Assembly: GCA_944392595.1 (NCBI GenBank)
Contig: CALXXD010000005.1
Span: 3,104-67,103 of the forward strand
Length of the DNA: 64,000 nucleotides
DNA from: an uncultured Alphaproteobacteria bacterium
GTDB taxonomy: Bacteria; Pseudomonadota; Alphaproteobacteria; Rs-D84
Reading direction: 5' to 3'
Part shown: positions 57,206 through 57,387 of the stretch, in pieces
Layout: each line of letters starts with the position of its first letter
Numbering within the stretch: the first letter of the stretch is position 1
Position numbers and translations under genes: made by a program
Notes under the pieces: model-generated
Told to the model about the DNA's origin: nothing
Database searches by the model: none
Seen by the model: the letters and a program-made list of their open reading frames with translations, nothing else

Positions 57206-57234
57206 TTGACATTTATATAAATTGGTACTATTAT
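57206..57234 (+). promoter_or_regulatory. promoter TTGACA-N17-TATTAT, with 10 nt to the leader ATG
   Basis: Starts 5 nt after the hlyIII stop codon. The geometry is identical to the serS leader promoter. Confidence 0.55.
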
Positions 57235-57244
57235 TCGTTTTGTT

Positions 57245-57304
57245 ATGAAAAAATATTTTATTTTCTTTGTCACAACAACAACTACAACCCCCACGGGGGT
57301 GTAA
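57245..57304 (+). CDS. candidate thrS leader peptide (19 aa, MKKYFIFFVTTTTTTPTGV)
   Basis: Hand-translated mini-ORF 83 nt upstream of thrS. Seven of nine consecutive codons are Thr (ACA ACA ACA ACT ACA ACC .. ACG). The run enters the hairpin ACCCC-CACG-GGGGT (57287-57300). Confidence 0.6.
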   Translation: MKKYFIFFVTTTTTTPTGV

Positions 57305-57387
57305 GATTCTGTTTGCGGTTTTTACCGCGTAATGCAATAATTTAATCAATTCGAAATTTAACAAAATAACTGACAAAGGAATTTATT

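Follow-up and report, generated by a model that had tools for sequence, protein, structure and literature searches.

The window analysed here, a 64-kb stretch of contig CALXXD010000005.1 from an uncultured alphaproteobacterium, carries directly upstream of thrS, the gene for threonyl-tRNA synthetase (ThrRS), a short cassette made of a promoter (P1), a mini open reading frame (mini-ORF) with a run of Thr codons, and a C-run/G-run hairpin that lies inside the end of that ORF. The cassette is real and far beyond chance, the decisive evidence being its conservation in 34 thrS loci and, in a Ser-codon form, in 7 serS loci. We propose that it is a cis-acting sensor of tRNA charging specific to Candidatus Enterousia and close relatives (order Rs-D84), in which read-through from P1 would be added to a basal supply of thrS transcript from a probable second promoter (P2). 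We hold this model as a whole at about even confidence, and one part of it, the sensing of tRNA charging by cognate codons, is well supported by the comparison between species.

The thrS cassette of the window

The elements of the cassette and the gene that it precedes are as follows.

57206..57234, forward strand: promoter P1 (-35 TTGACA at 57206-57211, 17-nt spacer, -10 TATTAT at 57229-57234; 11/12 consensus positions in the promoter scan)
57245..57304, forward strand: putative sensor mini-ORF, MKKYFIFFVTTTTTTPTGV and stop codon (19 codons; predicted leaderless or near-leaderless)
57272..57295, forward strand: putatively regulatory Thr codons (codons 10-15 at 57272-57289, codon 17 at 57293-57295)
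57287..57300, forward strand: hairpin 1, ACCCC-CACG-GGGGT (inside the mini-ORF, whose stop codon lies 1 nt past the hairpin)
57313..57341, forward strand: probable promoter P2 (-35 TTGCGG at 57313-57318, 17-nt spacer, -10 AATAAT at 57336-57341)
57315..57328, forward strand: hairpin 2, GCGGT-TTTT-ACCGC (-8.1 kcal/mol; overlaps the -35 hexamer and spacer of P2)
57375..57381, forward strand: Shine-Dalgarno (SD) sequence of thrS, AAAGGAA, by sequence
57388..59121, forward strand: thrS (ThrRS, 577 aa; ATG at 57388; Pfam confirms ThrRS)

The mini-ORF begins at an ATG (57245) 10 nt past the -10 hexamer of P1, with no SD sequence before it. Thr accounts for 7 of its 19 codons, against 5.3% of codons in the genes of the window, and the final ACC of the Thr run supplies the first bases of hairpin 1, which is predicted to fold with about -8 kcal/mol as a bare stem-loop and with -10.7 kcal/mol in a 33-nt context. 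The pattern CCCC-N3-5-GGGG occurs at 2 sites in the 64 kb, those of the thrS and serS cassettes, where 1.16 matches are expected. An initial annotation of this stretch had described P1, the ATG without SD sequence, the 19-codon ORF with its Thr codons and both hairpins, and all of these are present where it placed them. The 83-nt AT-rich spacer that it saw before the thrS SD sequence holds the conserved promoter-like element P2, which had been missed; and what it took for a plain second hairpin is part of the -35 and spacer region of that promoter.

The window and its 99% identical twin L001 also have an 11-bp complementarity between codons 7-10 of the mini-ORF (UUUCUUUGUCA, 57263-57273) and the SD region of thrS (UGACAAAGGAA, 57371-57381). 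The P1 transcript is predicted to fold mainly through this pairing, which is not conserved in the other species and may represent either a lineage-specific extra layer or chance.

Conservation and codon constraint

Our comparison set comprises 34 Enterousia-type thrS loci (L001-L033 and L075), the ThrRS of which is 53-99% identical to that of the window, and the cassette was found in 34/34, always in the order P1, ATG, mini-ORF, hairpin 1, T-rich stretch, hairpin 2, A-rich leader, SD sequence and thrS. Conservation of the mini-ORF in relatives, a check put forward in the initial annotation, has thus been run with a clear outcome, and its view that chance was unlikely is borne out by the 34 thrS and 7 serS loci. 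P1 is kept as TTGAC/TTGAT-N17-TAnnAT, the distance from its -10 hexamer to the ATG is 6-10 nt in 31/34 loci, and in 32/34 the Thr codons are read in the frame set by the first ATG past that hexamer. The mini-ORF itself has 18-20 codons and takes the form M-K/N-x-F...-(T)4-8-P-x-G-V-stop, with a Thr count of 4-8 in every locus, a stop codon 1-4 nt beyond hairpin 1, and a distance of 74-108 nt from that stop to the ATG of thrS, in fixed orientation. The conserved core of the run is formed by the cognate codons that touch the hairpin, 2-5 in number and always abutting it.

Codon choice along the run separates the coding constraint from the structural one. Before the last Thr codon the cassettes use ACA 91 times, ACT 46 times, ACG 12 times and ACC 5 times (window genes: ACA 34%, ACT 15%, ACC 25%, ACG 26%), while the last Thr codon, with which the hairpin starts, is ACC in 32/32 cassettes (ACC 25% in window genes) and the Gly codon in the 3' arm of hairpin 1 is GGG in 32/32 (GGG 19% in window genes). 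The arms of hairpin 1 are invariant in 34 species and its loop is variable. Because the Thr codons vary synonymously while the last ACC and the Gly GGG are fixed, we read two selections from these alignments, one on the Thr codons as such and, separately, one on the C-run/G-run as nucleic acid. The proposal that a cognate-codon upstream ORF forms the functional core has therefore held up well: the ORF, its start relative to P1, its frame and its stop are all kept, the Thr codons change synonymously, and at serS they are replaced by Ser codons.

Beyond this group the cassette is not seen, as 45 more distant alphaproteobacterial thrS loci, mostly encoding a full-length enzyme with a TGS domain, have no Thr-rich upstream ORF. 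Pfam assigns to the ThrRS of the window a class II core, an HGTP anticodon-binding domain and a tRNA_SAD domain, the N-terminal TGS domain being missing. All cassette-bearing enzymes (L001-L033, L075) are of this short form, of about 576 aa without TGS, and most of the more distant relatives (in the range L034-L080) have an N-terminal extension of about 67 aa (TGS) and no cassette.

In eight loci (L006-L009, L014, L017, L025 and L031) the upstream gene has a canonical terminator whose T-tract also contains the P1 -35 region, TTGATTTTT or TTGACTTTT, such that terminator and promoter have sequence in common.

The serS counterpart and the search for further members

The initial annotation had also noted an element of the same geometry before serS, which it took to be independent. 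The element is real and its geometry is the same, but it is a homologous paralogue that shares the peptide frame of the thrS mini-ORF rather than an independent invention. Its elements in the window are the following.

28666..28694, reverse strand: P1 of the serS cassette, TTGATT-N17-TATAAT (10/12 consensus positions; ATG 10 nt past the -10 hexamer)
28596..28655, reverse strand: Ser-codon mini-ORF, MKYVFVSFYLSSSPFGVRF and stop codon (Ser at codons 7 and 11-13)
28607-28618, reverse strand: hairpin CCCC-GTTT-GGGG, within the Ser mini-ORF
28564..28592, reverse strand: second promoter-like site, TTCATA-N17-TATAAT (promoter-like match)
27244..28524, reverse strand: serS (SerRS, 426 aa; Pfam PF02403 and PF00587)

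Ser-codon cassettes stand directly 5' of serS in 7 species, the window and 6 others, with 3-6 Ser codons each. Next to the peptide of the window given above, the mini-ORFs read MTKIFLSFDTLSSPFGVRI (L081), MKKIFCSFYIFSSPFGVLI (L083), MKNRFVFFSSSSSSPLGE (L013), MKTGFVFFSSISSPLGE (L015), MNTKFVFFSFSSSPLGD (L108) and MNMKFVFFSRSSSPLGV (L154). Thr and Ser cassettes have in common the start context, a hydrophobic N-terminus, the P-x-G ending, the hairpin and the position of the stop codon, their shared peptide frame being M-K-x-x-F...(X)n-P-x-G-V/E, and we regard them as homologous because of this common frame, hairpin, start context and stop position. In both, the hairpin is built from the last two bases of an xCC codon and the Pro codon, and the sole systematic difference between them is ACN against TCN in the run beside the hairpin. 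The strongest argument that the codon run is the functional core is that its amino acid switches between Thr and Ser with the downstream gene. A P2 equivalent is seen in serS cassettes too, as TTGCGA-N17-TAACAT in L013, L015 and L108 and as TTGCGC-N17-TACCAT in L083.

A search of the window and all loci scanned for short ORFs with a C4/G4 hairpin, or for promoter-linked codon runs, returned only the thrS and serS cassettes, and nowhere else in about 1.3 Mb of scanned sequence was a cassette present. When the 34 thrS cassettes were used to build a covariance model, it recovered those 34 and gave two weak matches, in L154 and L015. Scanning a metagenome collection for Ser-, Ala- and Pro-type versions gave 72 matches, of which only two were genuine, both of the Ser type at serS; this is a weak negative, since the collection has few Enterousia. 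In twelve unrelated contigs (L089, L100, L102, L110, L111, L116, L122, L133-L135, L140 and L145), of which two exceed 2 Mb, that scan hit a near-identical stretch (TCACCTTCCCCYTTGGGGGATTAGAGGGGGTTAGATCTGT...); it has nothing to do with the cassette and represents an element conserved in a different organism.

A probable second promoter between mini-ORF and thrS

Between hairpin 1 and the thrS SD sequence, an element of the form TTGCNN-spacer-TATAAT/AATAAT/TAAAAT, usually followed by CAA, is present in 34/34 thrS loci, its TTGCNN starting 11-18 nt past the G-run of hairpin 1 and its spacer measuring 17 nt in 29 loci, 16 nt in 3 and 18 nt in 2. We read this element as a sigma-70 promoter because its hexamers keep fixed positions around a spacer whose sequence varies freely. 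In the window its predicted transcription start site (TSS) falls near 57348, which would leave thrS a leader of about 40 nt. From its position and conservation thrS very probably has its own basal promoter, with the mini-ORF unit lying upstream of it, and, P2 standing between mini-ORF and gene, thrS would be independent of read-through from P1. A TSS downstream of 57304, which the initial annotation counted as evidence against the mini-ORF, is consequently no valid test, as a P2 start is expected besides that of P1. In L019 (2930-2990) an extra GC-rich hairpin, CCAGGCGGGTTGTCCCGCCGG, is inserted 3' of P2 and lengthens the thrS leader to about 72 nt; the other species are without it.

Hairpin 2 overlaps this promoter. 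Its region has a mean minimum free energy of -6.3 kcal/mol, where shuffled spacers average -2.65 and the equivalent stretch of P1 -1.25, and in per-sequence folds positions 3-6 of the P2 -35 hexamer are paired in 31/33 distinct sequences. Compensatory changes are seen at position 5 (GC 27, AU 3) and position 6 (GC 17, CG 6, AU 4, UA 1). On the alignment fitted to the covariance model the covariation of hairpin 2 has modest support only, since the loop lengths differ between species, and the per-sequence analysis is more informative. That the helix co-varies indicates that it acts as RNA, and transcripts from P1 must therefore often run beyond hairpin 1. A spacer hairpin as a general promoter feature of this genome was considered and rejected, the other TTGC-type promoter-like sites of the window having none.

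A model for the cassette

We propose the following model, which most reasonably fits the arrangement of the cassette. P1, a strong sigma-70 promoter, would start its RNA at the AUG or 0-3 nt earlier and thereby give a leaderless mini-ORF mRNA, and the weaker P2 would provide the basal transcript, or floor, of thrS. When Thr-tRNA(Thr) is scarce, the ribosome would dwell on the last 4-5 Thr codons with its footprint over the C-arm, leaving hairpin 1 open, such that transcription and RNA from P1 would pass hairpin 2 into thrS and add to the expression from P2. When Thr-tRNA is plentiful, the ribosome would reach the stop codon and depart, the G-poor mini-ORF RNA would be bare, and hairpins 1 and 2 could fold as pause or stop points at which P1 transcripts end before thrS. 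This ending would be weak, factor-assisted or Rho-dependent rather than brought about by a canonical terminator. The serS cassette would follow the same logic with Ser codons. A stalled ribosome is expected to keep the hairpin open because the cognate codons abut it and the footprint covers the C-arm, and it is the open-hairpin read-through model that we favour, since homeostasis of an essential synthetase requires stalling to raise expression. In its composition the RNA is compatible with loading of Rho when free of ribosomes, in a tna-like manner, the mini-ORFs being C-rich and G-poor (366 C against 134 G, where thrS coding windows average C-G = -4.3); the C-rich stretch, about 46 nt, is short for a Rho utilisation (rut) site. 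The two small hairpins and the T-rich sequence could, judged by sequence, serve as pause sites.

Several results weigh against this model. By an approximate d'Aubenton-Carafa score, for which genuine terminators in the same loci give -13 to +38, hairpin 1 falls short of a canonical intrinsic terminator in all 34 species (-23 to -60), and so does hairpin 2, averaging -66; the initial annotation, which had seen no canonical terminator and had prudently kept the read-out open, was right on this point. Hairpin 1 has a 5-bp GC stem with, in most species, the tail GTAATTTCTATTT, and in a lenient terminator scan it passes together with its T-rich tail in L009 and L010 and fails in the window. RNAalifold on the 34 sequences gives hairpin 1 and no antiterminator or alternative helix. 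With no conserved alternative pairing, the cassette is not a four-segment attenuator of the thrL/hisL/pheM type, to which the initial annotation had likened it. Hairpin 1 is itself without covariation, being invariant, so that its RNA structure is argued for by synonymous-site constraint only. Among the annotated ORFs of the window there is no rho gene, and gltX, the third aminoacyl-tRNA synthetase (aaRS) gene of the window, has no cassette, which leaves two aaRS genes known to carry one. P2 would allow thrS to be expressed without P1 and so weaken its dependence on the cassette. Finally, kinetics could reverse the sign of the response: in the longer runs a ribosome stalled on Thr codon one or two would fall short of the hairpin, and with loose coupling such a stall could favour its folding.

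Alternative explanations

The cassette might act post-transcriptionally, in the manner of ermC or of the mycobacterial leaderless poly-Cys small ORFs (sORFs), with P1 RNA always reaching thrS and the stall exposing the ribosome binding site (RBS) or stabilising the mRNA. In the minimum-energy fold of the window UUUCUUUGUCA pairs with UGACAAAGGAA at the thrS SD sequence, and a simulated stalled ribosome lifts SD accessibility from 0.18 to 0.58; the lack of a canonical terminator and the precedent in mycobacteria (bioRxiv 10.1101/834739) point the same way. The pairing, however, is not kept across species. Sequestration of the thrS SD sequence was accordingly rejected as a general mechanism, the leader/RBS duplex scoring -9.07 for cognate and -8.75 for non-cognate combinations and many species doing no better than shuffles; a simulated stall with a 30-nt footprint in the 34 species leaves SD/AUG accessibility unchanged (0.46 to 0.48, p = 0.71), and RNAalifold finds no long-range helix. 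We therefore consider a post-transcriptional read-out unlikely, although of the alternatives it survives best.

The polarity might also be the reverse of what we propose, as in pyrBI, smooth translation melting hairpin 1 and an early stall uncoupling ribosome and polymerase, such that thrS output falls when Thr-tRNA is low, either because the folded hairpin stops P1 transcripts or, in a variant, because P2 is obstructed by a polymerase in pause. The ORF spans the whole hairpin with its stop codon just beyond, as it does in pyrBI, the first Thr codons of the 6-8-codon runs lie at least 15 nt upstream of the hairpin, and by geometry a polymerase paused past hairpin 1 would occupy the -35 hexamer of P2. 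Against these stand the location of the conserved core of the run, 2-5 cognate codons at the hairpin that a stalled ribosome would cover, and the cognate specificity itself, which would be pointless for a general coupling sensor. Low ThrRS would moreover lead to less ThrRS, a positive feedback on an essential enzyme that is, to our knowledge, the opposite of every known aaRS control. We rate this reading as quite improbable.

Slightly harder still to sustain is an independent small gene, in which the P1 unit would end at hairpin 1 or 2 and encode a micropeptide or dual-function small RNA (sRNA) acting in trans or without effect, with P2 driving thrS. P2 would make thrS transcriptionally autonomous, the succession of hairpin, U-rich stretch and hairpin resembles an sRNA 3' region, and in another alphaproteobacterium the trp attenuator RNA and leader peptide have functions in trans (PMC6614838, PMC7298713), which provides a precedent. 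Such a gene would have no need to switch its run between Thr and Ser exactly with the gene downstream, as seen in 34 and 7 species, to keep its orientation and distance to the aaRS gene (74-108 nt from stop to thrS ATG), or to be confined to these two places in the sequence scanned.

A role at the level of DNA only, with the CCCC-N-GGGG palindrome and the GC inverted repeat as protein sites or UP-like elements of P2 and the ORF incidental, would suit the invariance of hairpin 1, as of a protein-binding site, and its location about 12-25 bp upstream of the P2 -35 hexamer, but is very improbable given that ATG, distance from P1, frame and stop are all kept, that the Thr codons vary at the third position only, that the arms of hairpin 2 co-vary as paired RNA and not as a protein recognition site would, and that the Thr-to-Ser codon switch is left without explanation.

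Biological context

The relatives of its ThrRS place the window in Candidatus Enterousia (order Rs-D84), which are uncultured gut alphaproteobacteria with genomes below 1 Mb and no amino-acid biosynthesis (PMC12306168). In an organism that makes no amino acids, the aaRS genes would be natural targets of such a sensor. If our model is correct, the cassette shows how an amino-acid-auxotrophic symbiont with few regulators can sense the charging of individual tRNAs, and thrS and serS would join the few aaRS genes that are under leader-peptide control. The Thr and Ser paralogues, which differ mainly in the codon run, provide a natural experiment in the re-targeting of a sensor, and at about 150 nt the cassette is portable. 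Its architecture escapes the existing attenuator finders, as these tools seek a terminator/antiterminator pair.

Of the other features of the window, gltX (GluRS, 54890-56467) shares 8 nt with the preceding ORF and 4 nt with the hlyIII-family gene that follows (56464-57201), and so is an aaRS gene in a tight operon without a leader cassette. At 47947-49932 a YbeY endoribonuclease domain (residues 16-133) and the apolipoprotein N-acyltransferase domains LNT_N and CN_hydrolase stand together in a single ORF of 661 aa, which is a gene fusion unless two separate genes have been read as one. No tRNA genes were found in the 64-kb window.

Comparison with known systems

The control of aaRS genes is known in detail for few model bacteria, in the form of the T-boxes of Firmicutes, the operator mimicry of E. 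coli thrS and the pheST leader, and classical leader-peptide attenuators are represented by thrL, hisL and trpL and, for an aaRS operon, by pheM-pheST of E. coli. The initial annotation had stressed that known control of thrS is of a different kind, which holds, though leader-peptide control of other aaRS genes has been described already: beyond pheST it has been predicted for Streptomyces trpS2 and leuS and for Bacillus hisS paralogues (PMC1262725, PMC2965389). In the literature we found no description of a thrS or serS leader peptide, nor of such control in Enterousia. A search with all 4227 Rfam families over the 64-kb window gave nothing at gathering score, and at 57100-57500 a permissive search (E<=10) gave only chance matches to unrelated families, with no leader, T-box or thrS operator among them.

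The cassette has in common with the classical attenuators a short upstream ORF with a run of cognate codons, a hairpin that overlaps the end of this ORF and, in our model, ribosome speed as the reader of charged tRNA. Unlike them it has neither the four-segment terminator/antiterminator switch nor a canonical terminator; it has no SD sequence, its start being predicted to be leaderless; the ORF contains its hairpin in full; and a conserved promoter-like element stands between leader and gene. Its targets, thrS and serS, differ as well, and no Rfam leader family matches it. Three defining classical features, terminator, antiterminator and single promoter, are thus missing.

Closest in other respects are the leaderless sensory poly-Cys sORFs of the mycobacterial 'Cys ribulon' (Canestrari et al., bioRxiv 10.1101/834739), with which the cassettes share consecutive cognate codons and the presence of paralogous or analogous sORFs at several loci, and whose leaderless start and ribosome pausing are predicted here as well. 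There the stalled ribosome breaks a duplex that sequesters the RBS, whereas the Enterousia cassettes have no conserved duplex, and the targets are Cys metabolic operons in another phylum, whereas here they are aaRS genes with a probable promoter of their own.

As in E. coli pyrBI, the leader ORF contains one hairpin, the folding of which would be blocked by the ribosome itself, with no antiterminator helix; pyrBI differs in that it responds to UTP by way of polymerase pausing, relies on a strong canonical terminator and has no cognate-codon run. The switches formed by an upstream ORF and Rho, such as tnaC-tnaA and toiL-topAI (PMC12121999), are a candidate for the read-out, since a stalled ribosome there hides the RNA from Rho and no intrinsic terminator is needed, but TnaC senses free Trp through its nascent peptide at the stop codon. 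The T-boxes of thrS and serS in Firmicutes and the E. coli thrS operator, a mimic of the tRNA anticodon arm, serve the same purpose of matching the aaRS level to tRNA charging or enzyme level by a mechanism unrelated to that of the cassette. They have no Rfam match here, and mimicry of the anticodon arm is ruled out, as the hairpin loops of 3-4 nt are variable and mimic no anticodon loop.

The cassette would therefore work like a leader-peptide sensor yet lies outside both described families, the classical and the mycobacterial. We suggest, tentatively and with less assurance than for sensing as such, that it exemplifies a terminator-less form of aaRS feedback built from paralogous leaderless mini-ORFs, a C/G hairpin within the ORF and a tandem promoter, in which ribosome occupancy rather than an RNA switch would decide the outcome, probably through Rho or hairpin-dependent pausing and on top of the output of P2. 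If true, this system would fill, in a lineage of reduced genomes, the place that T-boxes or operator mimicry have elsewhere, and it may reach further aaRS genes.

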